Shown here piece after piece: positions 10,108-28,094 of a stretch of DNA of 64,000 bases. The stretch is from Nitrospirota bacterium. Lineage in GTDB: Bacteria; Nitrospirota; Thermodesulfovibrionia; Thermodesulfovibrionales; Dissulfurispiraceae. The notes under the pieces are model-generated. The model made no database searches and had not been told where the DNA came from. It saw nothing but the letters and a program-made list of their open reading frames with translations. How positions within the stretch are numbered: the first letter of the stretch is position 1; each line of letters opens with the position of its first letter. Made by a program: the position numbers and the translations under genes. The stretch is from positions 256,001 through 320,000 of the forward strand of contig CAWBMP010000005.1 of assembly GCA_963790025.1 (NCBI GenBank), in the 5' to 3' direction.

Positions 10108-10113
10108 GCAGAT

Positions 10114-10707: not shown

Positions 10708-10713
10708 ATAATG

Positions 10714-10893
10714 AGTGTAATGAGGATATGTCTCTTCCGCTCAGGCGCTGCGTCTTGACAGTTCTAACGGCTCATTCGCTACAGTCGCAAAACTCGCCTT
10801 CGGCTCAGACACTGCGACTGCTTAACGCTCATTTCGCCGAGAACTGTTACCAAGACTCCGCGATTCGCTCCAGAGACATATCCTCATTACACT
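10714..10893. repeat. 180-bp palindromic element (MITE/REP-like)
   Basis: 22-bp perfect terminal IR AGTGTAATGAGGATATGTCTCT / AGAGACATATCCTCATTACACT with nested internal stems. Confidence 0.75.
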
Positions 10894-10914
10894 GTCTGAA
10901 TTGGAGATAACGCG

Positions 10915-12231
10915 ATGAACCCTATAACAATACGTTCATGGCCGAGGGCAATTCTTCATCTGGATGCCGATGCTTTTTTTGCATCCTGTGAGCAGGCGAT
11001 ACATCCTGAACTTAAGGGAATGCCTGTAATCACCGGCAAAGAGCGCGGCATCGTTGCCGCAGCAAGTTACGAAGCAAAAAAGCGGGGAGTAACAAGAGCG
11101 ATGAGGCTCTTCGAGGTCAAGAAAGTCTGCCCTGATGCCGTTATCCTTCCAAGTGATTATGAGACCTACAGCCTGTTTTCTCTCAGGATGTTCGAAATAC
11201 TCAGACGCTTTTCTCCTGATGTCGAGGAATACTCAATAGACGAAGCATTTGTTGACCTTACGGGTCTCAGGAGGAGCTTTCATGGCCCTTATGAAATGAT
11301 TGCAAAACGGATGCAGGAGACTATCGAGACGGAACTGGGTATTACCGTATCGATCGGCGTAAGTCTCTCAAAGGTCCTGGCAAAGATAGGTTCGAAGCAC
11401 ATGAAACCCCACGGGTTGACCATGATACCGGGCAGGGATATCCACCTTTATCTATCCAAACTGCCGGTAGGAAGCGTATGGGGAATAGGGCCTAATACTG
11501 CGGCTTTCCTGGGGAAGTTTGGAATAATCACTGCCCTTCAGTTTGCGCGGGAGGACGAACAGTTCATTAAAAAGCACCTCTCCAAACCGTATCAGGAAAT
11601 ATGGCATGAACTCAATGGAAGAAGCGTTTATCCTGTTACCCCAGAATCAAAGCGCAGCTATCAATCCATAAGCAAGACAAAGACCTTCACCCCGCCTTCC
11701 TGCGACAAGACTTTTATCTTTGCCCAACTGTCAAAAAACCTGGAGAATGCCTGCATCAAGGCCAGACGTTACAAGTTGGCGGCGACGAGACTCATTATCT
11801 TTCTCAGGACACAGGAATTCAGGGACACCGGTATTGAAATGAAGTTGAGTTGCCCTTCAGCCTACCCATCCGACCTCTTCGGTTTATTAAAAGATGGATT
11901 TAACCATATCTACCGGTCAGGCAATTCTTGTAGTCCCTACCGGCAGACAGGCGTTGTCCTTGCCGGACTTGTCCGTGATGACAGCATACAGCACACGCTA
12001 TTCGATGATCCTGCAAGGATCGAGAAGATGGCCAGGATTTACAGCGCGGTCGATCAACTTTCTGAAAAGTTCGGGAAGTACACCGTCCATCATGCAGCAA
12101 GCCTGCCGACGAAACTGCAGGCACAGCATGAGGGACAACGGGGTGATGTGCCGCATAGGGCAATGGAACTGTTCAAGGGAGAAAACAAAAGGCAGAGGCT
12201 CGGGTTGCCGGTGCTGAACATAAAAGTTTGA
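10915..12231 (+). CDS. dinB: Y-family DNA polymerase (DinB/UmuC-like)
   Basis: HLDADAFFASCE, AASYEAK, YSIDEAF, WGIG motifs; QHTLF clamp-binding-like motif. Confidence 0.9.
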   Translation: MNPITIRSWPRAILHLDADAFFASCEQAIHPELKGMPVITGKERGIVAAASYEAKKRGVTRAMRLFEVKKVCPDAVILPSDYETYSLFSLRMFEILRRFSPDVEEYSIDEAFVDLTGLRRSFHGPYEMIAKRMQETIETELGITVSIGVSLSKVLAKIGSKHMKPHGLTMIPGRDIHLYLSKLPVGSVWGIGPNTAAFLGKFGIITALQFAREDEQFIKKHLSKPYQEIWHELNGRSVYPVTPESKRSYQSISKTKTFTPPSCDKTFIFAQLSKNLENACIKARRYKLAATRLIIFLRTQEFRDTGIEMKLSCPSAYPSDLFGLLKDGFNHIYRSGNSCSPYRQTGVVLAGLVRDDSIQHTLFDDPARIEKMARIYSAVDQLSEKFGKYTVHHAASLPTKLQAQHEGQRGDVPHRAMELFKGENKRQRLGLPVLNIKV

Positions 12232-12304: not shown

Positions 12305-14173
12305 ATGAGTAATAAACATAAGGATAAGCTTAGTGTTTTAGTTATCGGATCGCTCGGGGTTGTTTTCGGCGACCTTGGTACAAGCCCCTTATACACGTTG
12401 CGCGTCTGTTTTGGGGGTTTTTTTGCCATTGTCCCCTCTACGGAGAACGTATTAGGCATAGCCTCTCTTATTTTCTGGGCCTTGACCCTTGTCGTCAGTA
12501 TCAAATACTGCCTGTTCATTCTCCGTGCCGATGACGATGGCGAAGGCGGAATTTTTGCGATGCTGGGGCTGCTGCACAGCAAGATGGGGGCCAAGCTGAA
12601 TCGGAACATGATTTTATTTGCGTGTTTTGGCTCTGCACTGCTTTATGGCGATGGTCTTATCACCCCTGTCATATCCGTACTTTCTGCCCTGGAAGGACTG
12701 GAAGTGGCGACAACAAGGGCCAGGCCCCTGATTCTGCCCATGACCTGTTTCGTACTCTATTGGCTTTTCTTTCTGCAGCGCCATGGCACAGGACGTATCG
12801 GCAAATACTTCGGTCCGATCATTTGCTTATGGTTTGTCTCTATCGCTGCACTGGGAATCAACGCGATCATTGCCAGACCGGAGGTTCTTTCCGCGGTTAA
12901 TCCCGCTTACGCGGTCAGTTTTATGGTCAGAAATGGATGGCACGGATTTGTGGTCCTTGGAGCAGTGGTCCTGTGCATCACCGGCTGCGAAGCCCTGTAT
13001 CTCGACATGGGCCATTTTGGGAGAAAGGCTATTCGTATCTCATGGTATGGATTGGCACTGCCCGCCCTGTTATGTAATTATTTCGGCCAGGCCGCGCTGG
13101 TCCTTGCTGATCCGAGACAGATCGCAGACCCCTTTTATGGGTTGGTACCCGGCGCTTTGCTCTACCCGATGGTGGGTTTGGCCACGGCTGCTACGATCAT
13201 CGCTTCTCAGGCCATCGTTTCGGGTGTTTTTTCCATGACCAGGCAGGCCATGCAGTTAGGCTACATACCGCGCATGCGTGTCCTGCACACCTCTGAGATG
13301 GCCGAAGGCCAGATTTATATCCCTGTGGTGAATTTCATGATGCTCTGTGCTGCGATTTCGTTGGCCGTGGGATTTAAACAGTCAGAGAACCTGGCCGATG
13401 CTTATGGCATAGCTGTCACCGGTAACATGTTTATAACGTCCGCGCTCTTTTTTATTATCAGCAGGAAAATATGGGGGTGGAGTCTATGGAAAGCCTTGCC
13501 GCTCGTTTCGGTCTTTTGGGTGCTTGACGGTTCTTTCCTGAGCTCATGCCTGCTTAAGTTCCTGACCGGCGGCTGGTTCCCGGTGGGGACCGCACTTTGC
13601 ATAATGCTCCTGATGATAACGTGGCGGGATGGCTGGGACATTCTCGCGGAAAAGATATATGCCAAGCAGATGCGTATGGACAGTTTCGTGCAGATTGTCT
13701 CCGCTACCAAGCCTCTGCGTCTGCCAGGCACGGCCGTGTTTCTCTCCACATTTCAGACCGAAGTGCCGCCAATGCTCCAGTATCATCTGAACCATATAGG
13801 GGCCTTGCACGAGAAAGTCCTGATTCTGTCCATACTCACAATTGAGGTCCCCGAGGTCCCCGATGGGAAAAAGCTGGACATTCGAAATCTCGGTGAAGGC
13901 ATATACCGCGTGACTGCCCATACAGGATTCATGGAGACGCCTAACGTGCCTGATTTACTGGCCCTTGCCAGGTTCCATATCTGGGATATGGACCCGGCCA
14001 GCACCGTATATTATCTTGGAAAGATTTCACTGGTCCCCGGCAAACAAAAGGTCATGGACCCTGTCCGCAGGTTTTTATTCTTCTTTATGCAGCGCAATGC
14101 GCTGAGTCCGGTCGTGTACTACAGTATCCCGCCGGACCGGGTCCTGGAACTGGGCGTGCAGCTCGACTTTTAA
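12305..14173 (+). CDS. kup: KUP/HAK/KT potassium transporter
   Basis: GVVFGDLGTSPLY, ADDDGEGG, GCEALYLDMGHFG, QIYIP motifs. Confidence 0.96.
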   Translation: MSNKHKDKLSVLVIGSLGVVFGDLGTSPLYTLRVCFGGFFAIVPSTENVLGIASLIFWALTLVVSIKYCLFILRADDDGEGGIFAMLGLLHSKMGAKLNRNMILFACFGSALLYGDGLITPVISVLSALEGLEVATTRARPLILPMTCFVLYWLFFLQRHGTGRIGKYFGPIICLWFVSIAALGINAIIARPEVLSAVNPAYAVSFMVRNGWHGFVVLGAVVLCITGCEALYLDMGHFGRKAIRISWYGLALPALLCNYFGQAALVLADPRQIADPFYGLVPGALLYPMVGLATAATIIASQAIVSGVFSMTRQAMQLGYIPRMRVLHTSEMAEGQIYIPVVNFMMLCAAISLAVGFKQSENLADAYGIAVTGNMFITSALFFIISRKIWGWSLWKALPLVSVFWVLDGSFLSSCLLKFLTGGWFPVGTALCIMLLMITWRDGWDILAEKIYAKQMRMDSFVQIVSATKPLRLPGTAVFLSTFQTEVPPMLQYHLNHIGALHEKVLILSILTIEVPEVPDGKKLDIRNLGEGIYRVTAHTGFMETPNVPDLLALARFHIWDMDPASTVYYLGKISLVPGKQKVMDPVRRFLFFFMQRNALSPVVYYSIPPDRVLELGVQLDF

Positions 14174-14183
14174 TAAACGCTTA

Positions 14184-16784
14184 TTACAGTGTGTAATTAC
14201 TTTCCAGGAAACGGCCGGCATAATACTTGACCTTGGCATCATCGTGCAGGATCGCATCGAGTTGCCTTGTATAAGAAATCAACCGGCCCAGCTTGTCAAG
14301 TTTATTTTCCTGCTCAGAACGTTCTATATTGGCGAGCCTTCCAATAATCAGATCTCCCTTCGTTTTTATATTAAAACCGTACTCTTTCAAAATAATAGAA
14401 ATAAGCTCTATCCTCCTGGACCTTTTTACGATTTCGGTAGCTCCTCCGGCAAACCGGAAGTATATATGATTGTTTCTTGCCTTTTCGCTGCAATAGCAAT
14501 CTATTGTGCTGAAATGATATCCGAACTTGAGATTCATGTTGAGGTATTCCTGGGAGATAACGGCAATATTGCTTCCTGGATACCTGGCGTTACCTGAAGC
14601 AATATCAGGCATTCGCATCATGCTTGCCATAAAATCGTTTGCCGTCAAAGCAACCGGTGATGATTGCCATGCCCCCGGGTACATCATCCCCTGTAGAATA
14701 GCTTTAAAGGGAATTGAAACAACCTGTTCGAAAGTAACGCTTTCGCTCCTGTCATAGTGACCCGCGCTGCTATCCAACCCTCCGCCGATATCCACTACGA
14801 TTATTCCGGCAGGTATAGGCAGGTCCAATTTCCTTGCCGCTTGTCCTTTGAGTCCCCGCACGGCATTGTCTATGAGTTCCATCACTGCTTTCTCATGTAT
14901 GAACCTCAGGATATCATGCATGGTCTTACACCCTTCAGGCGCAAACTTTTCCATTAACGGGTCAATGAGATTAAGAGGAGTTATATACCTCAGCACATAT
15001 CTTTTCTTGCGAAATTCAAAGATATTTCCCATTGCCGGTTGGCCGGAGCGCGCGTATTCAACCATTTCGCGCAGTATCCCGTCATATACAGTCATACCAT
15101 CTTCATCATCAATAATTACCGTAACCTCTTGTCCGTGCCTAAGCAGCTGTGTTGCGTTTCCAGAATTAACAAAAGCCGGGACCATGAATTCACGACAAAG
15201 GGAAGACATGTGGCTTGTAAGCGACCCCGTATCGGTAATAATTGCGGACGCATAAGGCATGATCCGTATAAAATCAGAGGAATCATTTTTTGCCACAAGG
15301 ATGTCGCCCTTTAAAAAGCCCTCGATTCCTTCCTTGTGTTTAAATATAAAAACCCTGCCGGCGCCCACACCTTTTTGAACAACCTGACTACGCGCTTTCA
15401 TCAGGATTCCGGCCCTTTCTTCCGGCCATTCCGGAGAAAGGGCCGGTGCAGGGGTCTTGTCAACAGATGCAATATTTAATGGCCTCGCCTGAAGTATAAA
15501 TATTTTCCCTTCCCTGTCAATGGCCCATTCAATATCCTGAGGTTGCCGGAAATAGTTTTCAATTTCCGAGGCCTGTCTCGCAAGTTCCGATACCTGTTCC
15601 GAAGATAATGAACTTTCATCAACCATCCCGGCAGGGACCCCCGTTATGGTTGTACCACCCTGGTTGCCGCCCACGACCATCGAGGTCTTTTTACCCGGTC
15701 TTTTATCTATTATTTCAGGGAACAAACCTTTTCTTACAACGTAAAAGTCCGCATCTGTCCGGCCTTCAACTACTGACGTGCCCAGTCCCCATGTTGAATT
15801 TACAATGATCGTACCTTCATCCCCATTCGGGTTCGTCGAATAAATAACCCCGCTCACAGCCGCATCGACCATGACCATGCAACCAACCGCCATCTTTATG
15901 CTTCCTATCTCACTTCCCAGTTGCTGAAGATATGCAGCGGCTTTATCCGAAAACAGGCTTGCGATGACGCGCTTATACGCGTCCTGTACTGCACTGCCGT
16001 CCAAAGGCACATTCAGGACAGTTTCAAACTGTCCGGCAAACGAAAATTCGCCGTCCTCCAGCTGACCGCTGCTCCTGACAGCAAGAAAACATGTATTTCC
16101 GTGGGTCGCCCTGAGCACTGACAGGGCACTATCAAGAACGTGTTCAAGGACAGGCGGAAAACTGCCGTTAATGATCGAAGTGTATATTTCATTTAATAAC
16201 GGCGCAGGCGTGTCGCTTCCGCCCAATGCCGAAATCTTTTTGTCGATGCCATTATGCCTTATAAACTCATTGTAAGCGGAGCATGTTATGGCAAAGGCAT
16301 CAGGGATGTTGAGGGAAGTATTATTTTTCAGTTCAGCGAGATTGGCATTTTTGCCGCCGACCTCATGCGCCATGCTATGGGCAAGCTCACTATAAGGCAG
16401 CACCAATTCCCTTCTCAAGACTTCCTCATCGTAAACATGCAGCCTGATTTCTTTATCGATGGCACTCAATACATTTTTGAGATGAGGATACTTATTCTGT
16501 GTGAGGGCATTGAAGCTTGAGAGAGAATCCGAGAGCTTATCATACAGCAAGGAGTAGGTGTCCCTTATATAAATCACATCGAATATGTAGTCGCCCCCGA
16601 GTTTGTCGCCCATATCAGCGATAATCTCAATCGCCTTATTATGGGATTCGAGGACCTGCCGGAAACGGTCGAACATGACCTTGAACGGGATAGGGCGGGC
16701 GGGGAATAGTTTCCGTAGTGAATCTGTAAATGAGTGTATTAGCGAATGAGTTAACTTCAGGTCAGCGTTTTGTTTCTCACTCAT
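14184..16784 (-). CDS. PEP-synthase-like dikinase: ATP-grasp plus phospho-His swivel domain, non-canonical C-terminus
   Basis: VGGKNANLAEL, AVRSSG..ED...SFAGQF, QDIEWA, LQARPL, TGSLTSHMSSLCRE; no recognisable PEP/pyruvate TIM barrel. Confidence 0.85.
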   Translation of the reverse strand: MSEKQNADLKLTHSLIHSFTDSLRKLFPARPIPFKVMFDRFRQVLESHNKAIEIIADMGDKLGGDYIFDVIYIRDTYSLLYDKLSDSLSSFNALTQNKYPHLKNVLSAIDKEIRLHVYDEEVLRRELVLPYSELAHSMAHEVGGKNANLAELKNNTSLNIPDAFAITCSAYNEFIRHNGIDKKISALGGSDTPAPLLNEIYTSIINGSFPPVLEHVLDSALSVLRATHGNTCFLAVRSSGQLEDGEFSFAGQFETVLNVPLDGSAVQDAYKRVIASLFSDKAAAYLQQLGSEIGSIKMAVGCMVMVDAAVSGVIYSTNPNGDEGTIIVNSTWGLGTSVVEGRTDADFYVVRKGLFPEIIDKRPGKKTSMVVGGNQGGTTITGVPAGMVDESSLSSEQVSELARQASEIENYFRQPQDIEWAIDREGKIFILQARPLNIASVDKTPAPALSPEWPEERAGILMKARSQVVQKGVGAGRVFIFKHKEGIEGFLKGDILVAKNDSSDFIRIMPYASAIITDTGSLTSHMSSLCREFMVPAFVNSGNATQLLRHGQEVTVIIDDEDGMTVYDGILREMVEYARSGQPAMGNIFEFRKKRYVLRYITPLNLIDPLMEKFAPEGCKTMHDILRFIHEKAVMELIDNAVRGLKGQAARKLDLPIPAGIIVVDIGGGLDSSAGHYDRSESVTFEQVVSIPFKAILQGMMYPGAWQSSPVALTANDFMASMMRMPDIASGNARYPGSNIAVISQEYLNMNLKFGYHFSTIDCYCSEKARNNHIYFRFAGGATEIVKRSRRIELISIILKEYGFNIKTKGDLIIGRLANIERSEQENKLDKLGRLISYTRQLDAILHDDAKVKYYAGRFLESNYTL

Positions 16785-16839
16785 TTACCCGTTCACCCAT
16801 TTACCCGTTCACCCATTTACCCATTCACTCATTAACTCA

Positions 16840-17202
16840 TCAGCTCAGGGCGCGCTGTATCGATGCCTTCAGTTCTTTTATCTTTACCGGCTTTGGGAAA
16901 AAATCGTGGACGTCTCCCCTCAATGCCTCTATGGCGGTATCAAGGTTTGCAAATGCAGTAATCATTATAACCTTAATGTCAGGGTAAAGACGTTTTATGG
17001 TCCTCAGAATTTCCATACCGTCTATCCCCTTCATTTTAAAGTCGGTAACTACCACATCGAACTTCTGTTCGCCTAATCGCGCCAGTGCCGGCTCTCCATT
17101 TAAAAAAGTCTCGACTGTATAGCCTTCCTGTTCAAGAGAGAGCTTCGCCATGTCGCCAACAATTTTCTCGTCATCGATAATCATGATTCTGTGATTGCTC
17201 AT
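16840..17202 (-). CDS. Single-domain response regulator (receiver)
   Basis: IIDDE, VVTD, ITAF, PKP; GAGGAGG RBS. Confidence 0.92.
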   Translation of the reverse strand: MSNHRIMIIDDEKIVGDMAKLSLEQEGYTVETFLNGEPALARLGEQKFDVVVTDFKMKGIDGMEILRTIKRLYPDIKVIMITAFANLDTAIEALRGDVHDFFPKPVKIKELKASIQRALS

Positions 17203-17270
17203 TTGGTCCTCCTCTAATGCGTCGAGCGTTGTGCTGAGAGCATCAAACGACTTTCGACGGCAGTTGGCGC

Positions 17271-18689
17271 TTAACGCTCAGCGCTCGACGCCTGACACTC
17301 TTTATGTACAGGCAATTCTATAGTAAAGGTGGTGCCTACTCCAACTTTGCTTTCCACCCTGATATCTCCCTGATGGTTCTTGATGATTCCGTAGCTGACC
17401 GAGAGCCCGAGGCCTGTTCCGCCTTCTCCTTTTGTGCTGAAAAAAGGGTCGAATATATGAAGCAGAAATTCGGAAGGTATGCCTTTTCCGGTATCCATCA
17501 CCGTAATCTCCACGGACCCTCCGGCGCTTCCGCATCTGGTCGACATAAAAAGCTTCCCGCCATCATGCATGGCCTGGACTGCATTGGTCACAAGATTTAC
17601 CAGCACCTGCTGTATCTGGTACTGATCAATAAATACATGTGGAAGGTCCTCGGCAAGGGTCAGTTTTGTCTCGATGTTTGAGATGTCGAGCATATTTTGC
17701 ACAAGTTTGAGCGTTTTTTGAACAACTTTATTGATGTCGCTCTCTTTCAGGTTCGCCTCTTTGGGTTTTGAGAAATCGAGGAGGTTTTTTATGATCTCTT
17801 TTATCCTTTCGGTTTCATTCTCCACCTTGGCCATGAATTCAATCCTCTGAGTCTCATCCAGACTATCGTAAAGTTCCATATAGGTCTGTGCTATCATGGA
17901 AATGTTATTCACCGGATTAGTCAATTCGTGTGCCACCCCGGCGGTCAGGATGCCCAGGGATGCAAGCTTTTTTGCCTGGATCAGCGCTTCTTCACGGTTC
18001 TGCAGTTCGTAAGACATGGCATTTATTGCAGCCATAACCAGACCGAATTCATCATCGGGAAGCGCACTCTCGATTCTGCTGAAATTCCCGTCGGATATCG
18101 ATTTTGCGATTTTCTCGATTTCTCTTAGTGAGACGCGAATTTGCCGCGATATAAAATGGCTCACAAAAACAGCGCCTATAAGCACCGCGCAAAAAGAGAA
18201 AATAAGTATGCTCTTCGATTTCGATATGATTTTGTTTACGCCTTCCCGCTCAAGGCGGGTAGTGGCGCTCGAAAATTCCCGCAGCCTCTGGCCTTCCGCC
18301 CTGAATTTTGCGTCAAGAGAGGTATCGCCATGAGGGTTTTTTTCCTCTTCTTCCACAAGATCGGAATAATTTTTCAGGTCTGATTTAAGCTTTGCAAAGT
18401 TCTCTGCCCCGATAGCACGGATGATATCCGGCCTCTCACTCTCCAGAAGCAGCCCGGCGCTCTCTATTTTTTCTTTAATGTCGAGAAGAAAACTTTCTTT
18501 ATGATAAAGGAAATAGTTTTTTTCGGAAAGGCGCATTTCGAGAAAAGATGCATTCAGATCGTCCGCTATCTCAACAAATCTCAGCTTCGTCAAAATGAGA
18601 TTGAGGTTCTGCAAGGCAAAAAGACCGATCCCTAAAATCAGCCCGAAAATGAATATATTGGTAAGTATGTTTTTATTTTTTATCTTCAT
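17271..18689 (-). CDS. Membrane sensor histidine kinase (HAMP, HisKA, HATPase)
   Basis: Two TMs; GVAHELTNP H-box; NLVTNA, DTGKG, FDPFF, GTGLGL. Confidence 0.93.
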   Translation of the reverse strand: MKIKNKNILTNIFIFGLILGIGLFALQNLNLILTKLRFVEIADDLNASFLEMRLSEKNYFLYHKESFLLDIKEKIESAGLLLESERPDIIRAIGAENFAKLKSDLKNYSDLVEEEEKNPHGDTSLDAKFRAEGQRLREFSSATTRLEREGVNKIISKSKSILIFSFCAVLIGAVFVSHFISRQIRVSLREIEKIAKSISDGNFSRIESALPDDEFGLVMAAINAMSYELQNREEALIQAKKLASLGILTAGVAHELTNPVNNISMIAQTYMELYDSLDETQRIEFMAKVENETERIKEIIKNLLDFSKPKEANLKESDINKVVQKTLKLVQNMLDISNIETKLTLAEDLPHVFIDQYQIQQVLVNLVTNAVQAMHDGGKLFMSTRCGSAGGSVEITVMDTGKGIPSEFLLHIFDPFFSTKGEGGTGLGLSVSYGIIKNHQGDIRVESKVGVGTTFTIELPVHKECQASSAER

Positions 18690-18743
18690 ATCTTCGAAAA
18701 ACCTCTATCTTTCCCTCTGCCTGTCTTATCTCTTTTACCTGTC

Positions 18744-19949
18744 TTATTGTGGTACAGGGCAGCGTGGGATTTCTGCCTGCTCCTTTCTTACCGGCATATA
18801 CCACAGCCAGCCGTCCACTATCATCAGTATACCTGCAGCAATTAAAAAAGCGTCGATGGCTGTCAGAATGCTGAAGCCGAAATAGTGCATGAGACCCAAC
18901 CCCAGGCTGGCAAAGGAAACTCCGGTCCTGATAAAGGCGAGTCCGGTCCTCGCCCTGGCATATAAAGTACGATAGCATGCGGCAACTGTACGTTGTGCGG
19001 CCAGAACGTTTCTTTCCCGCGCAAGATGGGTCCGTTCCCTGCTGGAAGGCGACGGATACAAAATAGTGCAGTGATCCGCAAGAAAATCGCCGAGACGGGC
19101 AAGCATAGTCTGCCCTGCCGGCAGATGAGTTCCGGGTTGGTCAATAAAATGATAGTTCTCAAGAAACTGGATCGTTGCCGCCGTTACTTCGACAAGCGTC
19201 TGGTCTCCGGGCGGCTTCATCCTTGACTTCCTTATTTTCAAATAACCGGTCAACCCGAAAAGAGCAAGAAAAAACCCTCCGGCCATAACACCATATAAAT
19301 AAAAAACACGACTCGATTTAAAAGAACGAATCAGTATATCAGATACAGCAATAAGCCGCAATCCCCATCTGAGGAAAGAAAAGTCAGTCCTGGCCATTGC
19401 CAGGTCGGTCCTGTAGCACGCCAGCCGCGTCCTCCATTGCGCCATAGTATTGCGCCAAAATGCAAGTCCTGTCCTTTCGGTCCCGATAAGATAACCTGGT
19501 TTTTCATGCAGAAAGTCCTGGATGAACCATTGTATGTCCTCTCCAAGCGCCACCCAGAATTCATATTTTTCAGCTTTAATAAACTTTTTTACCTCATCAT
19601 GCACTGTGGGGTCTGACGGATTATTCGCAGCCACAACCACCGTATTGCCGTCTCTAATGATCGGAAACCACTGATTTATCGACAGTCGTTCACCATCCAA
19701 ACCTGCGAGCAGTTCCGGCGGTATCGGCATTCGCTCATCATATTCCACAAAAGGGCACTGGTAATAATTTGAAAGTGCCTGCAGCAGAATATGCTTTGGG
19801 ATGCGATACTCCGCGATAAGTACACTTTCCAGATCGATACCTCTGGCGGAAGCGGCACGCTCGGCTTCACAAAGTCTGTCCCGGGTCAGTACGCCCCAAC
19901 TGATCAGGTCATTAAACTTATTGGAAGCGATACTATCAACGCTCATCAT
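18744..19949 (-). CDS. GspE/MshE-N-like domain plus two DUF202-like repeats, membrane protein
   Basis: LISWGVLTRDRL...LESVLIAEY...CPFVEYDE; two ERTxLA...RTGLAFxRTG units, each followed by TM helices; start overlaps the upstream stop. Confidence 0.75.
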   Translation of the reverse strand: MMSVDSIASNKFNDLISWGVLTRDRLCEAERAASARGIDLESVLIAEYRIPKHILLQALSNYYQCPFVEYDERMPIPPELLAGLDGERLSINQWFPIIRDGNTVVVAANNPSDPTVHDEVKKFIKAEKYEFWVALGEDIQWFIQDFLHEKPGYLIGTERTGLAFWRNTMAQWRTRLACYRTDLAMARTDFSFLRWGLRLIAVSDILIRSFKSSRVFYLYGVMAGGFFLALFGLTGYLKIRKSRMKPPGDQTLVEVTAATIQFLENYHFIDQPGTHLPAGQTMLARLGDFLADHCTILYPSPSSRERTHLARERNVLAAQRTVAACYRTLYARARTGLAFIRTGVSFASLGLGLMHYFGFSILTAIDAFLIAAGILMIVDGWLWYMPVRKEQAEIPRCPVPQ

Positions 19950-21642
19950 TACTGAAGACCACCTTTTTCCACGAACGGGCCGGTATGCCGTAATCAGGGA
20001 TAATAAGCTCCATCTGTCCATAACAATACGGGTACTGCTTTCTTATTTTTTCTGCCGGAAAATGCCAGTAAAACCCATCGGCAATCAGTGTCAATCCAAC
20101 CACTATCAGCAACATGTTAAATATAGACCATGCAGCATTGCCCGCACCAAAGAAAACCATGAGTTCCATGCCGACGGCAGTTATGCCTACTCCTGTTCTG
20201 ATAAAAGCCAGTCCGGTCCTTGACCGTGCCATTACTGTCCGCAGTCGCGCCATCACATTTCTCCGGTCGGCGAGCATGGTCCTTTCGAGAGCAAGCCCTG
20301 TAGTAGCCCATATACCCGGTGCATGGGACGGCCTGACAGGCGGAACACACTTGTAATCCGAAGCGGGATGTTTTAACGCCGGAGGAAAAACAAAATCCCA
20401 AATAGTCTGTTTAGTCTGCGTATTCCTGACTGCATTAAAACTTATAGAACCGGCACGGCGGCCCGGGAGATACCAGTAAAAACCCTCTGCAGCCATGGCA
20501 ATACCGCTAATAATAAGAGCGACATCAAAGAAAGTCCACGGTCCTGGACGGAACTGACGCAATAACCCAATACCGAATCCTATAAAGGCAACACCTGTCC
20601 TCGAAAAAGCCAATCCGGTGCGCGCCCTTGCCATTTTTGTTCTGTAGCATGCCAGCACAGTCCTCTCCTCGGCAAAGTCCGTTCTATCGCTGGCAAGGAA
20701 CCTGCGTCTCATAACCGGGGAGAGGTTGTTCCAGTACGAACGCAGGACTGCCGCATCTTGCACATAGCCGGTACGTTCAAAGAGAGGATTGTCACCAGGA
20801 TTCACGACTTTAAGAACAGTGGTCCCCCATGTCGCTTCAGTACCTCCGAAATCATATAATTTTCTCCCTGATTTTCGGGTAGGGATATACCACCGCAGGC
20901 CGTCGACGGTCATAACCACGCCTGAAATGAACAGTGCCGCTTCAAATACCGTTAATAGCCCTATACCTAAAATTCTGAAAAGCACGATAGCGACCGCCAT
21001 AAAAGATATCCCGGTCCGGAGAAAGGCCAGTCCGGTCCTTCCTTTTGCCAGGGACGTTCTGGTACATGCCAGCAAAGAGCGCCTGTCCGCCAGAAATGTT
21101 CTCACTTTTGCAAGGGGCGTCCTGCCTGCCGCTGGGGGGAAATGAGGATTGACATCAAAGTTGTGTTCTATGATCCTTACAACGTCTGAAGGCAGAGCAA
21201 TAACGAAATGGATATTCTCAACTCGAAGTTTATCTTTAATGTCCTGAATTACATCAGGGTCGGAAGGATCATATACAATCACTTCGGCCTGCATTCCCCC
21301 GACGTAATAGGGAAACCAGAGTTTGCGTTTCAGGTCCTCCATATTCAGACGCATGGTAATAAAATAGGAAGACAAGCCGCTCTCATCATATTCTATAAAA
21401 GGGAAATCGAGATGCCTGGTGAATGCCATCCGGGAAGGTATCACAGTCTCGTCGTATTCGACAAAAGGACACATGTAAAATTCGGAAAGGCAGAACAATA
21501 TCTCGTGTTTGGGAACTCCCTTTTCAATCAAACATTCCTCAGGATACTTTCCCGCAGCAAATGAATCCCTTATGCAGTTATCCAGTTCATTTTCGGTGAG
21601 GATGCCTCTTCTTATAAGCCGTTCAAATTTATTGTTTAACAT
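19936..21642 (-). CDS. GspE/MshE-N-like domain plus three DUF202-like repeats, membrane protein
   Basis: RLIRRGILTENEL; three (D/E)R(T/S)xLA...RTGLAFxRTG units, each with a TM hairpin. Confidence 0.78.
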   Translation of the reverse strand: MLNNKFERLIRRGILTENELDNCIRDSFAAGKYPEECLIEKGVPKHEILFCLSEFYMCPFVEYDETVIPSRMAFTRHLDFPFIEYDESGLSSYFITMRLNMEDLKRKLWFPYYVGGMQAEVIVYDPSDPDVIQDIKDKLRVENIHFVIALPSDVVRIIEHNFDVNPHFPPAAGRTPLAKVRTFLADRRSLLACTRTSLAKGRTGLAFLRTGISFMAVAIVLFRILGIGLLTVFEAALFISGVVMTVDGLRWYIPTRKSGRKLYDFGGTEATWGTTVLKVVNPGDNPLFERTGYVQDAAVLRSYWNNLSPVMRRRFLASDRTDFAEERTVLACYRTKMARARTGLAFSRTGVAFIGFGIGLLRQFRPGPWTFFDVALIISGIAMAAEGFYWYLPGRRAGSISFNAVRNTQTKQTIWDFVFPPALKHPASDYKCVPPVRPSHAPGIWATTGLALERTMLADRRNVMARLRTVMARSRTGLAFIRTGVGITAVGMELMVFFGAGNAAWSIFNMLLIVVGLTLIADGFYWHFPAEKIRKQYPYCYGQMELIIPDYGIPARSWKKVVFSNDER

Positions 21643-21730
21643 AGTATATAAAGCCCAGAAACTTCATTATTATAAATTATAGCCATATTAATAATAAAAT
21701 TTTTTCTCTTCCGGGCAAGGCTCCATATTT

Positions 21731-23374
21731 TTAGCCGCTCTCATCGGTCCTGAACACCACCTTTTTCCATAAACGGGCCGGTTTGCCATAATCAGGTATT
21801 ATAAGTTCCATGTCTCCATAGCAGTAGGGGTACTGCTTTCTTATTTTCTCGGCTGGGATGTGCCAATAGAAACCATCAGCAATAAGAGCCAATCCAACCA
21901 CTATCAATAATATGTTGAATATCGTCCACGCGATATTGCCGGCACCGAAATAAACAAGGAGTTCCGTTCCTACCGCAGATACGCCTACCCCGGTTCTGAC
22001 CAGCGCCAGACCGGTCCTTGACCGGGTCATTACCGTTCGCAGCCTTAACATTACGTTTCTCCTGTCGGCAAGCATAGTCCTCTCAAGAGCAAGGCCCGTA
22101 GTAGCCCAGATCCCCGGCTCACTGGACGGCCTGACGTTCAGAACGCACTTGTAGTCAGAACCTGGTTGCTTTAGCGCATGAGGAAAGGCAAGGTCCCATA
22201 TATTCTGTTTACCCTCTGATTTGCGGACCGACTTGAAGCTCATCGAACCGGCACGGCGGCCCGGAAAATACCAGTAAAAGCCCTCTGCCGCCATTGCGAG
22301 GCCCACAGCGACAAGCGCTGCATCAAAAAAAGTCCAGGGACCGGGACGGAACTGGCGTAATAGCGCAATGCCGAACCCGATAAAGACAATTCCAGTCCTT
22401 GCAAATGCCAACCCTGTGCGCGCCCTCGCCATTGTTGTCCATAAGCACACGTGCGTCGTCCTTTCCTCGGCAAAATCGGTCCTGTCGCTCGAAAAAAACC
22501 TGCGCCGCATTACCGGAGACAGATTGTTCCATCGGGAACGCAACAACGCCGCACCTTCCACGTGACCTGTTCGTGTAAAAAGAGGGTCGTCACCGGGGTC
22601 CGTCATTTTAAGGACAGTAGTTCCCCAAGTCGGTTCAGTTGCAGTAAAATCAAAAACTCTTCTCCCTGTTTTTCGTGCGGGGATATACCATAAAAGGCCG
22701 TCATAAATCATGAGTATGCCCGAAATGAACAATGCCCCTTCAAAAAAAACCGAAAGCCCCATACCGAAAACCCTGAAAAGAACAACCGCGATGGCCATAA
22801 AAGCCATACCGGTGCGTATAAAGGCCAGTCCGGTCCTCCCTTTTGCCAGGGACGTCCTGGTACAAGTCATCAAAGAGCGCCTGTCAGCCAGAAATGTCCT
22901 CACTTTCGCCAGAGGCGTCCTGCCGGCTGAGAATGGGAAATGAGGATTCACATCAAAGTTGTGTTCGATAATCCGAATAAGGTCCGAAGGCAGAGCAACA
23001 ATAAAATTGACCTCCCGAACTCCAAGTGTGGCTTCGACATCCTCCATGACATCAGGGTCGAAAGGATGACACGCAATAACCTCGGCACGGCCTTTGCTGA
23101 CGGCGAGAGGAAACCAGAGATTTCGTTTGAGTTTCTCCATATTGAGACGCCTGGTGAGAAAAAAAGAGGCGATGACGCTCTCATCATATTCGACAAAAGG
23201 ACAACTATAGAACTCAGTCAGCGAGAACAATATCTCGTGTTTCGGGACACCCCTTTCAATCAGCCATTCTTCAAGAAGCCTACCTGCCGCTGCGGACTCT
23301 CTGATATTTTCATCCAATTCCTTTTCGGTGAGAATACCATTTTTTAAAAGTCTCTCGAATTTGTTTTTTAACAT
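21731..23374 (-). CDS. GspE/MshE-N-like domain plus three DUF202-like repeats, membrane protein (close paralog of 19936..21642)
   Basis: Colinear with and highly similar to the adjacent gene over its whole length. Confidence 0.78.
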   Translation of the reverse strand: MLKNKFERLLKNGILTEKELDENIRESAAAGRLLEEWLIERGVPKHEILFSLTEFYSCPFVEYDESVIASFFLTRRLNMEKLKRNLWFPLAVSKGRAEVIACHPFDPDVMEDVEATLGVREVNFIVALPSDLIRIIEHNFDVNPHFPFSAGRTPLAKVRTFLADRRSLMTCTRTSLAKGRTGLAFIRTGMAFMAIAVVLFRVFGMGLSVFFEGALFISGILMIYDGLLWYIPARKTGRRVFDFTATEPTWGTTVLKMTDPGDDPLFTRTGHVEGAALLRSRWNNLSPVMRRRFFSSDRTDFAEERTTHVCLWTTMARARTGLAFARTGIVFIGFGIALLRQFRPGPWTFFDAALVAVGLAMAAEGFYWYFPGRRAGSMSFKSVRKSEGKQNIWDLAFPHALKQPGSDYKCVLNVRPSSEPGIWATTGLALERTMLADRRNVMLRLRTVMTRSRTGLALVRTGVGVSAVGTELLVYFGAGNIAWTIFNILLIVVGLALIADGFYWHIPAEKIRKQYPYCYGDMELIIPDYGKPARLWKKVVFRTDESG

Positions 23375-23408
23375 AATAATTAATGATTAATGATAATTAA
23401 TGCGTCAG

Positions 23409-23436
23409 GCAGCGCGCGTTGAATGTCGCGCGCTGC
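23409..23436. repeat. GC-rich 10-bp inverted repeat in a divergent promoter region
   Basis: GCAGCGCGCG-ttgaatgt-CGCGCGCTGC, just upstream of TTGACA at 23442. Confidence 0.5.
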
Positions 23437-23512
23437 GGTACTTGACAACAACCTGTAATATGTTTTATACAAATTATATAGTTTAAGAGCTTAATAAAGA
23501 AAATTGATATAT

Positions 23513-23911
23513 ATGGATTTTAGCAAAAAACGTATTTTTTGTCTGCTTTTCCTCGCCTGCTTCATTATTTATGCGTTATCAACCGCTGTCTGTTATATTT
23601 ACAGCGGCAAGACCGTTGTACCTGTTCCCCTTCCCTGCAGTTTTGCCAGGAAGTTTGTCGGCCATGGGACCGTCAATCCGTTTGAAAAAAACAACCGCGG
23701 CGTTGACATTATTGTGCACATTGTGCGAACTCTTGTTCCGGAAGACAGCATTGCAAAATTATCGTATTTAAAAAAGACACCTGTGTCCAAAAGCTGTTTT
23801 TCGATGCGTTCAATGCAGTCTTCTTTTTATTCTGGAATTTCACCATTTGGGAAAGTCCCGGCCACCGGTTTCCGGTTCTTATGTTCGGGACTCTCTCCTC
23901 CATCAGTTTAG
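23513..23911 (+). CDS. Hypothetical protein with N-terminal signal/TM and C-terminal SGLSPP
   Basis: Basic then hydrophobic N-terminus; ORF lies between a putative promoter and the second degP. Confidence 0.5.
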   Translation: MDFSKKRIFCLLFLACFIIYALSTAVCYIYSGKTVVPVPLPCSFARKFVGHGTVNPFEKNNRGVDIIVHIVRTLVPEDSIAKLSYLKKTPVSKSCFSMRSMQSSFYSGISPFGKVPATGFRFLCSGLSPPSV

Positions 23912-24069
23912 TTTTCCTTTCGAAAACATTTATGCCTGCATAGTCTGATCCCCGAACGGAGTGGGATCGGTCTTTGCTCTTTCAGCGTTGAAAAAACGAC
24001 AATCCGTGTCCTTGTTGAAAGAAATGACACTGTCCGACTTTTCACATGGGCACTTAAAGAGGAGGTAAT

Positions 24070-25533
24070 ATGTGCAGATCAAAAAAAGATATGACTAAGA
24101 TGTGTCCGACTGTGCTTGTCGTATGGGCGACCGTTGCGGCGGTCCTGTGTTTTCAGGTGAATACATACGCGGACGGACCGGCAATATCGCGGCAATCCAT
24201 TGACTTGCTTTCGAGAGAGAGCCATGCCAGGGCGGAAGTGGCCGCTGCCGTGAAGCCCGCAGTTGTGAATGTCTCGACTACGAAGACCGTGAAATCGGGG
24301 CAGACGATCAATCCTTTTCTGAACGACCCATTCTTCAGACAGTTCTTCGGCAACGGGCCTTTCGAGCATCCAAAGGAGCACAAGCAGGCGAGTCTCGGCT
24401 CGGGCGTCATTGTGGATGCCGACGGATATATATTGACGAATAATCATGTGATAAAGGACGCTGACCAGATAAAAATAAAACTTGCGGATAAGCGGGAATT
24501 CAACGGCAGGGTCATAGGGACTGACCCTAAAACCGACCTTGCCGTGGTCAAGATTAATGCGACGCATCTTCCTTTCCTGAAGTGGGGTGACTCGGACAAA
24601 CTGGAGGTTGGCGATACCGTACTGGCAGTCGGCAATCCTTACGGTCTGAACCAGACGGTAACGTCCGGGATTGTCAGCGCGACGGGCAGGGCCAATGTCG
24701 GCATAGCTGATTACGAAGACTTCATACAGACAGACGCGCCTATTAATCCCGGGAATTCAGGGGGCGCTCTGGTCAATGTGAGGGGCGAACTCGTCGGGAT
24801 CAACACCGCCATATTCAGTACATCCGGCGGCTACCAGGGGATTGGATTTGCGATCCCGGGAAGCATGGCAAAAGTAGTGATGAGAGGTCTGATCAGGAAC
24901 GGAAAGATTGTCAGGGGATGGTTGGGTGTCTCCATTCAGGCTGTTACCCCTGAACTGGCCGGGCAGTTCGGACTTAAGGATGAAAAAGGCGCGCTCGTAG
25001 CTGATATTGCAGAGAAAAGCCCGGCAGAAATGGCTGGAATTAAGCGGGCGGACTTGATCATTAAATATGACGGGAAAGAGGTGAGCGACCCGTCGAACCT
25101 GAGAAATATGGTTGCAAGCACTCCCCCGAACAAAGACGTTGCGATACAGCTTATCCGGGCAGGCAAGGTCCTGACGGTGAGGGCCGTGATTCTTGAGATG
25201 CCGGCTGAGATGCAAAAACCCTTGCAGTCATCCTCTGCTGCGTCCAATAACGTTTTCAAAGGAGTCCAGGTACAGGATATCACGCCTGAATTAAGGAAGG
25301 AGCTTAATATCCCGAACCGGATAACCGGCGTAATCGTCTCGGACGCGCAAGAAGGAAGCCTTGCGGGAAATGTCCTGATGCGCAAAGATATCATCCTTGA
25401 AATCAACAGGAACAGGATAGAGAGCGTCAGGGATTACGAGGCAATGGCATCGAAGATCGAACACGGCCGGAATGTTCTCTTACTGGTTTACAGGAACGGG
25501 TCAACTTTTTATGTTGCCTTGCCTGCAAAATAA
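24070..25533 (+). CDS. DegP/HtrA (Do) family serine protease, second paralog
   Basis: TNNHV, DLAV, PGNSGGAL; two PDZ domains; GAGGAGG RBS. Confidence 0.95.
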   Translation: MCRSKKDMTKMCPTVLVVWATVAAVLCFQVNTYADGPAISRQSIDLLSRESHARAEVAAAVKPAVVNVSTTKTVKSGQTINPFLNDPFFRQFFGNGPFEHPKEHKQASLGSGVIVDADGYILTNNHVIKDADQIKIKLADKREFNGRVIGTDPKTDLAVVKINATHLPFLKWGDSDKLEVGDTVLAVGNPYGLNQTVTSGIVSATGRANVGIADYEDFIQTDAPINPGNSGGALVNVRGELVGINTAIFSTSGGYQGIGFAIPGSMAKVVMRGLIRNGKIVRGWLGVSIQAVTPELAGQFGLKDEKGALVADIAEKSPAEMAGIKRADLIIKYDGKEVSDPSNLRNMVASTPPNKDVAIQLIRAGKVLTVRAVILEMPAEMQKPLQSSSAASNNVFKGVQVQDITPELRKELNIPNRITGVIVSDAQEGSLAGNVLMRKDIILEINRNRIESVRDYEAMASKIEHGRNVLLLVYRNGSTFYVALPAK

Positions 25534-25704: not shown

Positions 25705-27258
25705 ATGAAAGATAACTTTAGTTTTTTGCGGGCAAATCTTTCCTCAAGTCCGAACTTGAAATGGTTCATTTTATCAACCGTCCTGATGGGCGCTGCCATG
25801 TCGGCCCTGGATGTAAGCATCGTTAACATAGCAATGCCCACCCTGAAAACCACTTTTAACGTATCAATGGCGGTAATAGAGTGGATAGCTATCGCTTACA
25901 CGCTTGCGCTGACTGTTTTCCTGCCTCTGTTTGGCAGGCTGGCTGACATGTTCGGCAGGTCAAAACTCTATAACATCGGTTTTGTAGTCTTTTCAGCTGG
26001 TTCTTTACTCTGCGGAATGTCACCCACCGCGAGCTTTATGATAGCATCCCGGGTCATCCAGGCAATAGGGGCAGGACTTCTACAGGCCAACTCTGTTGCA
26101 CTTATCACGCATGCCTTTCCAGCCTACGAGCGGGGCAGGGCAATCGGCATTCAGGGAGCTGTTCAGGCAATTTCAATGGCTTTGGGTCCGTTTGTAGGGG
26201 GCATTCTGATAGCAACAGTGGGCTGGCGCGCCATTTTCTATATAAATATTCCGATTGGTTTGCTTGGTACCATGGCGGCCCTACTGGTCTTGCCTGCTGA
26301 CCAGCCGATCAAAGAGAAGCAGAAGATAGATTATCCGGGGGCCGTTTTTTTTGCCTCCGGGCTTGCTCTGCTGATGCTGGCTCTCAACGAGGCCGTCAGA
26401 CTTGGCTGGACCTCGCACACTATTATTACATACTTCTTTTCCGGCATCATTTTATTTTTCCTTTTCGTCATTACTGAGTTGAAGGTTGAGCAGCCGCTGA
26501 TCAATCTCGGTCTCTTCAGGCATCCCACTTTTCTCATAGGGAACCTGACAGGCATGCTGTCCTATTTCGTATTGTTCACCGTTTTGTTCCTGATGCCCTT
26601 TTATTTGGAAAAGGTATTGGGTTTCAACGCCGTTCTCACCGGCAGTCTGCTAACCCCTATTCCGCTTGCCATGATGGTGGTGGCCCCATTCTCCGGTCAT
26701 ATTTCCGATAAATATGGGCCGAGGATAATGACTACAACGGGGATGTTCATATCGGCCCTTGCCTGCCTGTCGCTTGTATTCACCGGGCAATCGGTCAGCA
26801 TGCCTCTGCTGATAGCCGAATTGATATGCCTCGGAATCGGAATAGGATTGTTCACGCCGTCGAACAACAGCGCCATAATGAGCTCGGCCCCTAAAGATAA
26901 ATGGGGTGTGGCCGGCGGTCTTCTGAACATGATGCGCTCCCTGGGACTTATCCTGGGAGTGAACATCTCCGGTCTCATATTTACCTCAATGGAGCACCGC
27001 TATCTGGCAGAAAAAGGATACCCTAACGTGCAGCACGTGTTCAGCAATAGCAGCATTCCTTTGCTGATTAAAGACAATGCCTTCATGCACGGTTTCATCT
27101 TCGTCATGGTAGTTCTTCTTCTCCTCAATCTCTTTTCGCTCTTCTTTGCGGCGACTAACAAGAACTGGGTTGTGCTCGTTCGGAAGCGGGCTGTGTTGCA
27201 AAGTAAAAGGGATAAGTGGAGGAGACATAAAACAGGCCGACCCGACATAGAGGAATAG
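25705..27258 (+). CDS. MFS transporter, DHA2/EmrB-like (14 TM)
   Basis: LDVSIVNIAMP, GRLADMFGR, WRAIFYINIPIG motifs. Confidence 0.92.
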   Translation: MKDNFSFLRANLSSSPNLKWFILSTVLMGAAMSALDVSIVNIAMPTLKTTFNVSMAVIEWIAIAYTLALTVFLPLFGRLADMFGRSKLYNIGFVVFSAGSLLCGMSPTASFMIASRVIQAIGAGLLQANSVALITHAFPAYERGRAIGIQGAVQAISMALGPFVGGILIATVGWRAIFYINIPIGLLGTMAALLVLPADQPIKEKQKIDYPGAVFFASGLALLMLALNEAVRLGWTSHTIITYFFSGIILFFLFVITELKVEQPLINLGLFRHPTFLIGNLTGMLSYFVLFTVLFLMPFYLEKVLGFNAVLTGSLLTPIPLAMMVVAPFSGHISDKYGPRIMTTTGMFISALACLSLVFTGQSVSMPLLIAELICLGIGIGLFTPSNNSAIMSSAPKDKWGVAGGLLNMMRSLGLILGVNISGLIFTSMEHRYLAEKGYPNVQHVFSNSSIPLLIKDNAFMHGFIFVMVVLLLLNLFSLFFAATNKNWVVLVRKRAVLQSKRDKWRRHKTGRPDIEE

Positions 27259-27374
27259 CCGGAAGAAAAGGCGCAGGCGTTCCGGTCCCGGAAAAATGAA
27301 AAGACGCAAGCGGTGTGGTAGAATGATCTGACACACCGGCAACTTTACACGGACACTTGAGTTTTAGGAATGCC

Positions 27375-28094
27375 ATGAAGATAGCATGCAGAACAGATAA
27401 AGGCAGAAAGCGCGAGATGAACCAGGATATGGTATTGGCAGACACGGAAAGAGGGCTGGTCCTTCTTGCCGACGGTATAGGGGGTTGCCATATTGGAGGT
27501 GAGGTGGCCAGTGAACTTGCAGTAAAAGAGGCCTATGCCTATCTCGAAGACAAGGTTGATCATACTCCATGTGAGACTGCAGACCCTGTGCTTCTTTCTG
27601 AAGCAGTTGTCCATGCACACAAGATTATACGGGAAAAAGCCCGGTCGGAAAAGGAATGCGCAGGCATGGGGACAACTCTTGTCATCCTGCTGATGAGGGG
27701 CAGAACGGCATACATCTGCCACGTCGGCGACAGCCGCGCTTATGTTATACGACAAAAAATATGTCAGATTACGGAGGACCAGACCTTCCAGAATTCCATT
27801 GATGAGGACCCGATAATCCGCAGTCTGTTCTTCCGGAAAAAGGCCCGTACACTTATGCAGGCAGTGGGGATATCGGGAGATCTGACTCCGGAATCGGTCC
27901 AGGTGGAACTCAAGTGTGGAGCTGTTCTTCTTCTCTGTTCCGACGGGCTTACGGATATGCTCTCCGATCAGGAGATTTTGGGGATCATTCACAGCAACAA
28001 CTTTGATCCCGACGCATCCGCGGACGCTCTTGTCTCTGAAGCAAATGAAAAGGGCGGTATTGACAACATCACCGTTGCACTGGTCTCGCTATAG
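27375..28094 (+). CDS. PP2C-family Ser/Thr protein phosphatase
   Basis: GRKREMNQD, ADGIGG, MGTT, HVGDSRAY, LCSDGL, GGIDNIT. Confidence 0.93.
   Translation: MKIACRTDKGRKREMNQDMVLADTERGLVLLADGIGGCHIGGEVASELAVKEAYAYLEDKVDHTPCETADPVLLSEAVVHAHKIIREKARSEKECAGMGTTLVILLMRGRTAYICHVGDSRAYVIRQKICQITEDQTFQNSIDEDPIIRSLFFRKKARTLMQAVGISGDLTPESVQVELKCGAVLLLCSDGLTDMLSDQEILGIIHSNNFDPDASADALVSEANEKGGIDNITVALVSL

Follow-up and report, generated by a model that had tools for sequence, protein, structure and literature searches.

The DNA studied here is a stretch of 64,000 nucleotides from a Nitrospirota bacterium of the family Dissulfurispiraceae (GenBank assembly GCA_963790025.1, contig CAWBMP010000005.1, positions 256,001 to 320,000 of the forward strand), referred to below as the window. 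Three co-oriented paralogous genes on its minus strand, which we call A, B and C, encode membrane proteins in which an N-terminal domain of the MshEN/T2SSE_N type is followed by two or three hairpin units of the DUF202 family. An earlier interpretation based on the letters and open reading frames (ORFs) of the window, the sequence-only reading, had described three paralogs with such an N-domain and no ATPase, and this description was borne out by both the ORFs and the Pfam matches. The genes and their units, with lengths in amino acids (aa) and helix ranges in residues, lie as follows.

21731-23374, minus strand: gene A, large subunit with three repeats, the upstream and more divergent paralog (ORF, 547 aa)
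22931-23374, minus strand: N-domain of A, MshEN/T2SSE_N fold without the cyclic di-GMP (c-di-GMP) motif, about residues 1-148 (Pfam, Foldseek)
22655-22927, minus strand: A unit 1, arginine-ladder helix and transmembrane (TM) hairpin, helices 152-203 and 208-237
22250-22507, minus strand: A unit 2, helices 287-341 and 348-387
21839-22102, minus strand: A unit 3, helices 422-476 and 481-514
19936-21642, minus strand: gene B, large subunit with three repeats, the paralog that overlaps C (ORF, 568 aa)
20857-21129, minus strand: B unit 1 (motif and hydropathy analysis, alignment)
20452-20709, minus strand: B unit 2 (Pfam, motif and hydropathy analysis, alignment)
20041-20304, minus strand: B unit 3, source of the string quoted in the sequence-only reading (motif and hydropathy analysis, alignment)
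18744-19949, minus strand: gene C, small subunit with two repeats, 401 aa from the ATG at 19949
19212-19496, minus strand: C unit 1, the most divergent unit type, without the two acids of the second membrane helix (TM2) (alignment, unit tree)
18768-19055, minus strand: C unit 2 (Pfam, alignment, unit tree)

The open frame of C spans 18744-20021 (minus strand) and reaches beyond the ATG at 19949, which is most likely the start of the gene because it gives a 14-nt overlap with the stop of B, is preceded 8-14 nt upstream by the Shine-Dalgarno-like AAGGTGG, and agrees with ortholog lengths of 395-414 aa. With the Pfam gathering cut-offs (23.1 bits for MshEN, PF05157, and 23.4 bits for DUF202, PF02656), the MshEN family was matched over the cut-off by all three proteins (A, 44.3 bits; B, 31.2 bits; C, 44.1 bits), and DUF202 by A (35.2 bits, two stretches) and B (56.5 bits, three stretches). 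C alone remained slightly under the DUF202 cut-off, at 20.9 bits; despite this score, its units can be aligned to the units of A and B and fall into clades of the unit tree. The two Pfam families are those named in the sequence-only reading. No ATPase domain was found among the Pfam matches of A, B and C. The PilB model TIGR02538 gave 19.1 and 25.4 bits against a cut-off of 675.65, and covered the N-domain part only. Identity as a GspE/PilB/MshE secretion ATPase was rejected, as none of the three proteins contains a T2SSE ATPase with Walker motifs.

Motif and hydropathy analysis counted three units in A, three in B and two in C, as had been read from the letters, and a purpose-built hidden Markov model (HMM) of the unit agreed. 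Each unit of A, B and C has the layout expected of DUF202, in which a long Arg/Thr-heptad helix runs into a membrane helix (TM1) and, after a very short loop, a second membrane helix follows. The Pfam DUF202 model begins at heptad 4 of this unit (residues 173-221 of A correspond to model positions 1-53).

The 3+2 gene pair and its arginine ladder

Lone 3-repeat genes, a concern raised in the sequence-only reading, proved not to be common. We surveyed 401 genomes of the phylum (E < 1e-80 for the 2-repeat ortholog and E < 1e-100 for the 3-repeat ortholog) and found the 3-repeat gene in 59 of them and the 2-repeat gene in 58; in all 58, the 2-repeat gene is the immediate downstream neighbor of the 3-repeat gene. 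In the lone genome with a 3-repeat gene only (G076, 78% complete), the gene is on a contig of 915 bases, that is, at a contig end. The gap between the two HMM matches was 1-70 nt in 55 genomes, the remaining three having partial or broken copies. In a sample of 45 related loci, 44 have DNA downstream of the 3-repeat gene (L014 ends within that gene), and a same-strand 2-repeat gene follows, usually overlapping, in 44 of 44; 42 of these pairs are intact, one is cut by a contig end (L025) and one is split into two frames (L037). A distant branch, a cluster named by its sources Acidithiobacillus thiooxidans and sampled by three metagenome loci, has an overlapping 3-then-2 pair in 3 of 3, with 41-45% identity to the window proteins and Arg at all 29 ladder positions. 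In the unit tree, each of the five unit types falls on one side of a branch, with bootstrap values of 97-100% for four and 46% for the fifth, and these five separate clades indicate that the 3+2 layout predates the lineages compared.

The unit profile, searched against 1.84 billion representatives, gave 2777 matches at E <= 1e-3, and the best 150 of these include no protein that exceeds three units of this subtype. A natural 3+2 fusion was sought among relatives of C longer than 702 aa and none was found, which is weak evidence, and a search of the ESM Atlas gave matches confined to the protein's own family. Several singletons depart from the common plan: P0131 resembles a large subunit in which a deletion has fused units 1 and 2, and P0124 (428 aa) and P0128 (340 aa) have three units without the MshEN N-domain. 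P0210 (476 aa), an Asn-rich, eukaryote-like singleton, has, by eye, DUF202-like RT motifs at five places (near residues 95, 187, 260, 335 and 415), and Pfam counts four stretches; judged from its sequence, it may be a single-chain five-unit form. Two further matches to the unit profile, P0229 and P0244, were discarded as unrelated ER/LA coiled-coil repeats.

Within the window's own lineage, the large subunit is duplicated. The A/B duplication arose once, in the ancestor of the window and of the loci L008, L011, L013 and L015, with both copy types forming the starred clades, and a genome of the same genus (G322) has two large-subunit copies. The N-domain of B contains a 22-aa insert (residues about 71-92 of B, window about 21367-21432) that duplicates a CPFVEYDE-type motif and is also present in the B-type copies of L008, L013 and L015; in L011 the B-type copy is broken. 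At columns conserved in at least 90% of the family, A departs at 10 positions, including R312W, and B at 2. It is reasonable to regard A and B as two alternative large subunits.

The heptads were examined in alignments of 49 large-subunit and 43 small-subunit orthologs. The unit consensus is six heptads of the form xRTxLAx preceding the hairpin, with Arg spaced exactly seven residues apart; a unit has six such Arg, except unit 3 of the large subunits, which has five. Across these orthologs, 29 of the 30 heptads keep Arg at the ladder position (mean entropy 0.02 bit), and the spacing is therefore not due to chance; the Arg every seven residues, running into a TM hairpin, are as the sequence-only reading had them. 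Conservation is next highest for T at +1 (0.12 bit), then for A at +4 (0.33 bit). Plotted as a helical wheel, the conserved face consists of L (-60 deg), R (0), A (40) and T (100), with Arg in the center, from which we infer that the ladder Arg would face a lumen and be flanked by helix-helix contacts. In the window, the ladder Arg is kept at 16 of 17 positions in A, 17 of 17 in B and 12 of 12 in C. When the register is continued into TM1, a small residue stands at +7 (V/A, G, A/S, A or S/G across the five units), and at +14 the large subunit has an invariant Arg in its first two units and the small subunit R/Q/K in its first. TM2 carries acidic/polar pairs that are kept in four of the five units (E212/D225, D351/E364, N487/D500 and D366 or N366/D379).

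The eukaryotic VTC complex offers the closest point of reference for this arrangement. In the passages of PMC9911596 on which we draw, VTC is described as a Vtc1:Vtc3:Vtc4 pentamer of 3:1:1 stoichiometry with fifteen membrane helices, three per subunit, and its ring is composed of three Vtc1, one Vtc3 or Vtc2, and one Vtc4. The channel is formed by the five TM1 helices, and the upper pore wall contains K24 and R31 of Vtc1, K622 and R629 of Vtc4, and K694, K698, R705 and R709 of Vtc3, in which the basic pairs K24/R31 and K622/R629 are seven residues apart (PMC9911596). A table of PMC7283521 assigns the Vtc subunits to DUF202. The five basic helices that the sequence-only reading had described as lining the yeast VTC pore agree with these passages in stoichiometry, in the five TM1 helices and in the seven-residue spacing of basic residues.

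N-domains, operon partners and cargo

The N-domain of the A model was matched by Foldseek to the GSPIIB domains of PilF and to MshE in c-di-GMP-bound structures (targets including 8pfa, 8pdk and 5htl; E 4e-4 to 1e-3, probability 1.0, identity 18-26%), and 7lko was also among the matches. As defined in a part of PMC5013675, the MshEN c-di-GMP receptor has two 24-residue RLG...Q motifs, for which a relaxed search pattern is also given there. None of the 92 family members (49 large and 43 small subunits) contains this relaxed pattern. In the family consensus, other residues stand in place of the RLG triads, both RLG-type half-sites are absent, and the family has invariant N-domain residues of its own (E35, K45, H46, E47, L49 and E62 in A numbering). 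The sequence-only reading had called the RLG motif degenerate and had proposed a ligand-gated channel, noting that MshEN domains can bind c-di-GMP; by these counts, the motif is absent outright. With the model NF053729, A scored 17.8 bits against a cut-off of 38, and B and C had no match at E <= 1; at E <= 0.01, matches were given by 4 of the 49 large subunits and by 20 of the 43 small ones (best E 2.9e-6), C not being among them. The source genome gave 16 GGDEF matches, which means that c-di-GMP signalling exists there. Judged by sequence, canonical c-di-GMP binding by the N-domains is not supported, though they may bind it in some non-canonical way.

The polyphosphate part of the earlier proposal fared similarly. 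In the source genome (98.8% complete), neither PPK1 (PF02503) nor PPK2 (PF03976) nor the VTC catalytic domain (PF09359) was found, and the positive controls were matched in known genomes. PPK1 is present in 77 and PPK2 in 126 of the 401 phylum genomes; among the 59 pair carriers, PPK1 is present in 3 (G322, G288 and G158) and missing from 56, and PPK2 is present in 0, counts that do not amount to a statistical test because related genomes share gene content. Since so few carriers have PPK1, none has PPK2 and the source genome has neither, ordinary polyphosphate appears to be an unlikely cargo. The sequence-only reading had proposed a polyanion or phosphate channel of five units with two interchangeable large subunits: the A/B duplication fits the interchangeable subunits, whereas polyphosphate as the cargo is disfavored by the PPK counts.

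A c-di-GMP-gated polyphosphate or phosphate channel working like VTC can nevertheless draw on several observations, namely, the DUF202 homology, the five units, the basic pore residues seven apart in VTC, an N-domain fold shared with c-di-GMP-bound MshE and PilF, the 16 GGDEF matches, and the 20 of 43 small subunits reached by NF053729 at E <= 0.01. However, in view of a relaxed motif that occurs in no family member, the NF053729 score of A far under its cut-off with no match in B and C, a source genome without PPK1, PPK2 or the VTC catalytic domain, and carriers with PPK1 in 3 of 59 and PPK2 in 0 of 59, we consider such a channel very improbable.

Downstream of C, the following three genes lie on the same strand.

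17271-18689, minus strand: membrane histidine kinase with HAMP, HisKA and HATPase_c domains (Pfam), 55 nt downstream of C
16840-17202, minus strand: receiver-only response regulator, 120 aa (Pfam Response_reg, 101.6 bits)
14184-16784, minus strand: dikinase resembling phosphoenolpyruvate (PEP) synthase and rifampin phosphotransferase, 866 aa, with a C-terminal domain without known match (Pfam)

Among the 28 loci with 6.5 kb or more of downstream DNA, 26 have this trio of kinase, regulator and dikinase after the pair, the exceptions being L016 and L037; L028 was entered in the count by eye (its kinase ORF call starts early). The dikinase has PPDK_N (258 bits) and the PEP-utilizers mobile domain (58 bits) without PEP-utilizers_C, and stays under every NCBIfam cut-off. 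Its model (pLDDT 75.6) matched rifampin phosphotransferase 5hv1_A with Z 38.2 over residues 124-569 only, and the C-terminal domain (about 590-866) had no match in the search with the whole model, the domain not having been searched on its own. An Rfam scan of 14000-24200 at E <= 1 gave zero matches. Among the sequencing runs listed, no RNA run contained this DNA, and one DNA run contained it with a 0.38 share of the words. The promoter scan gave 18 sites against a shuffle mean of 14.9 (standard deviation 4.2), which is near chance, and the terminator scan 22 sites against 10.8 (standard deviation 3.5) expected, many of them intragenic; no operon boundary was drawn from either scan.

Other genes of the window surround this group. 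An HtrA/DegP-type protease with PDZ domains (24070-25533, plus strand) is divergent from A over a 695-nt spacer and is followed by a DHA2/EmrB-type transporter of the major facilitator superfamily (25705-27258, plus strand; TIGR00711, 285 bits against a cut-off of 230) and a PP2C phosphatase (27357-28094, plus strand). Of the 45 related loci, 13 contain a homolog of the DHA2-type transporter, which in some cases separates the pair from the kinase. On the other side lie a LexA-like repressor (Peptidase_S24, LexA_DNA_bind) followed by a Y-family polymerase (IMS) at 10078-12231 (plus strand), and a Kup potassium transporter at 12305-14173.

Relatives with a single DUF202 unit bear on the role of these neighbors. 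P0149 (363 aa) has a heptad array and a DUF202 hairpin fused to a C-terminal CheY-like receiver (Response_reg, 96.7 bits), a fusion that links the regulator of the operon to the membrane proteins; the same plan is seen in P0150. Other single-unit DUF202 proteins of 237-373 aa (P0142, P0143, P0146, P0152, P0154, P0168, P0173 and P0187) are found, in which the heptad xRTxLAx is present about 12-18 times ahead of one TM hairpin, and the sequences of these relatives suggest that the ladder of arginines can be greatly extended. In the 6-kb flanks of the Acidithiobacillus-type pair there is no homolog of the kinase, regulator or dikinase and no common functional neighbor, which indicates that the pair itself is the conserved core.

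These data leave room for an explanation without a pore, in which the Arg-striped helices would be a membrane-anchored, rigid coiled-coil stalk in the cytoplasm, acting either as a signalling scaffold for the recruitment or regulation of the kinase, regulator and dikinase or as a sensor of a cytoplasmic polyanion. The conserved operon and the receiver fused to a DUF202 unit in P0149 speak for such a role, as does the use of MshEN/T2SSE_N as a protein-docking module in the solved PilB-PilZ complexes (7lko); ladders of about 12-18 heptads in single-unit relatives go far beyond the need of a membrane pore, and the TM2 acids may neutralize the membrane Arg. On the other hand, an Arg placed centrally on the conserved face, between Leu and Ala/Thr, suits a lumen and not the hydrophobic core of a two- or three-helix bundle, the Acidithiobacillus-type pair keeps 29 Arg without these three genes in its 6-kb flanks, and the only solved DUF202 assembly is a channel. 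We regard a scaffold or sensor of this kind as unlikely, with a real though minor claim to being correct.

A possible five-hairpin complex

Taken as a whole, the sequence-only reading is partly supported: the obligate 3+2 DUF202 pair with its invariant arginine ladder is what the genomes contain, and the assembly formed by the pair is a matter of interpretation. The best reading of the data, to which we give a good chance while stopping short of calling it probable, is a VTC-like five-hairpin heteromeric complex of A or B with C. In this complex, A or B (three hairpins) and C (two hairpins) would be subunits of one obligate heteromeric assembly in the inner membrane, and the five DUF202-type hairpins would be the same module, in the same number, as in the membrane ring of eukaryotic VTC. 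The five inner helices would form a parallel helical barrel with a cytoplasmic extension of about 37 residues (about 55 A if helical), and this extension and the membrane part, lined by 28-29 Arg, would provide a positively charged conduit for anions. Along the ladder register into TM1, the conduit would have a small residue in mid-membrane and then Arg at the outer end in two to three of the five units. The two MshEN-like N-domains would no longer bind c-di-GMP canonically and would probably serve as docking sites for a protein; the most plausible partner is the operon's own receiver-only regulator in its phosphorylated form, whose docking would gate the complex. The cargo would probably be something other than ordinary polyphosphate, and the duplication in the window's lineage would allow A+C or B+C complexes.

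The structure model is compatible with part of this picture. The AlphaFold2 (AF2) model of A (pLDDT 76.5, pTM 0.65) has three hairpins with inner helices of 52-55 residues, and for the membrane part Foldseek gave only weak look-alikes, exporters of the ATP-binding cassette type. When the A model was aligned structurally against all representatives (VIA-align), designed circular tandem-repeat toroids and helical barrels ranked first; the best look-alike was 8e0o_B (Z 11.4, root-mean-square deviation 3.6 A, 165 residues aligned), and 7rdr, 9dze, 6xr1, 8qai and the 16-helix nanopore 6u1s were further ones. The three hairpins of A are thus predicted to make an open arc of inner and outer helices.

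Several points weigh against the five-hairpin complex. The Z values of the A model (<= 11.4) fall short of the value of about 13 required for helical repeats, and the toroids matched have 7-9 repeats; such matches to a predicted model would fix neither the curvature nor the size of the ring, and its closure at five is something we infer from the gene counts and one solved homolog. No Vtc chain was among the matches listed by Foldseek or VIA-align for the whole 547-aa A model, searches that can miss single domains, and profiles of the large subunit and of the unit, run against the sequences of the Protein Data Bank (PDB), returned PilF N-domains and a chance TetR match only, again with no Vtc chain. 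According to hydropathy and the AF2 model, each unit has two membrane helices, unlike the three of a Vtc subunit. The TM2 acids could neutralize the membrane-proximal Arg within the hairpin rather than leave it free in the pore, one ladder Arg of A has been lost (R312W), and the metagenomic singleton P0131 (399 aa) has just two units of the large-subunit type.

The same model comparison bears on whether the pair assembles in another number, for example as (3+2)x2 in a 10-hairpin ring, or as separate homo-oligomers that cooperate. The arc of the monomer model superposes on toroids of 7-9 repeats and on an 8-hairpin nanopore, which would suit a larger ring. Against this, the strict adjacency and the overlapping frames suggest equimolar co-assembly, the five distinct unit types were fixed anciently, VTC is a pentamer, and P0210 has five DUF202-like motifs by eye (four by Pfam) in one chain. 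An assembly other than five hairpins seems quite unlikely to us.

If the five-hairpin complex of A or B with C does form, the conserved trio raises a further idea, namely that the pair, the dikinase and the two-component system are, in Nitrospirota, a functional analogue of VTC with unrelated chemistry. The dikinase would make or activate a phosphorylated anionic product, either a polyphosphate-like chain or another phospho-polymer, without PPK1 or PPK2, and would pass it to the five-helix tube with its 29 Arg for export across the inner membrane; the kinase would switch export on through docking of the receiver-only regulator on the MshEN-like domains. We put this forward as an improbable extension.

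We found no published description of the 3+2 pair in a search that left aside subscription-only papers, and none of the papers listed in a search for DUF202 together with MshEN, T2SSE_N or GspE contains DUF202. The pair offers a concrete and testable architecture, with five concatenated hairpins in two chains and an extreme, perfectly conserved arginine ladder, and the five-hairpin complex would give bacteria their first candidate for a pore of the VTC type. Close relatives exist in the cultivated Acidithiobacillus thiooxidans (as named by the sources, including ATCC 19377), which makes genetics and biochemistry feasible.

Comparison with known systems

To our knowledge, DUF202/YidH is a large bacterial family without an established function, and the eukaryotic VTC channel is its sole solved assembly. 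Single-unit bacterial proteins of the YidH family share the Pfam family with A, B and C, and relatives are named "uncharacterized membrane protein YidH (DUF202 family)"; unlike them, A, B and C have their units in tandem behind an N-terminal MshEN domain, carry four additional heptads and form an obligate gene pair. According to a passage of PMC10299036, YidH was a screening candidate for D-alanine export and had no effect in the transport assay. The source genome also has a standalone canonical DUF202 gene outside the window (G000:C5:609757-609996, L001; 72 bits, 158-aa frame).

The long-ladder single-unit proteins (P0142, P0152 and P0149) likewise have the xRTxLAx heptad running into a TM hairpin. 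They differ in having one unit, about 12-18 heptads and no MshEN domain by a purpose-built HMM, and some carry a C-terminal receiver.

With the N-domains of MshE, PilF and PilB (PMC5013675; PDB 5htl, 8pdk and 7lko), A, B and C have in common a PF05157 match over the cut-off and a fold match of probability 1.0. In contrast to those proteins, they have no ATPase after this domain, no RLG half-sites, and invariant residues of their own.

Compared with the VTC ring, A, B and C lack an SPX or TTM polymerase domain, and carriers of the 3+2 pair mostly lack polyphosphate kinases. The ladder here comprises six heptads and extends about 37 residues into the cytoplasm, and the modules are concatenated 3+2 in two chains, whereas VTC is made of five separate chains. 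What they share with VTC is the DUF202 module itself, with heptad-spaced basic residues on the inner helix, which line the pore in VTC, and, if A or B pairs 1:1 with C, five modules per assembly, non-identical and asymmetrically arranged in both.

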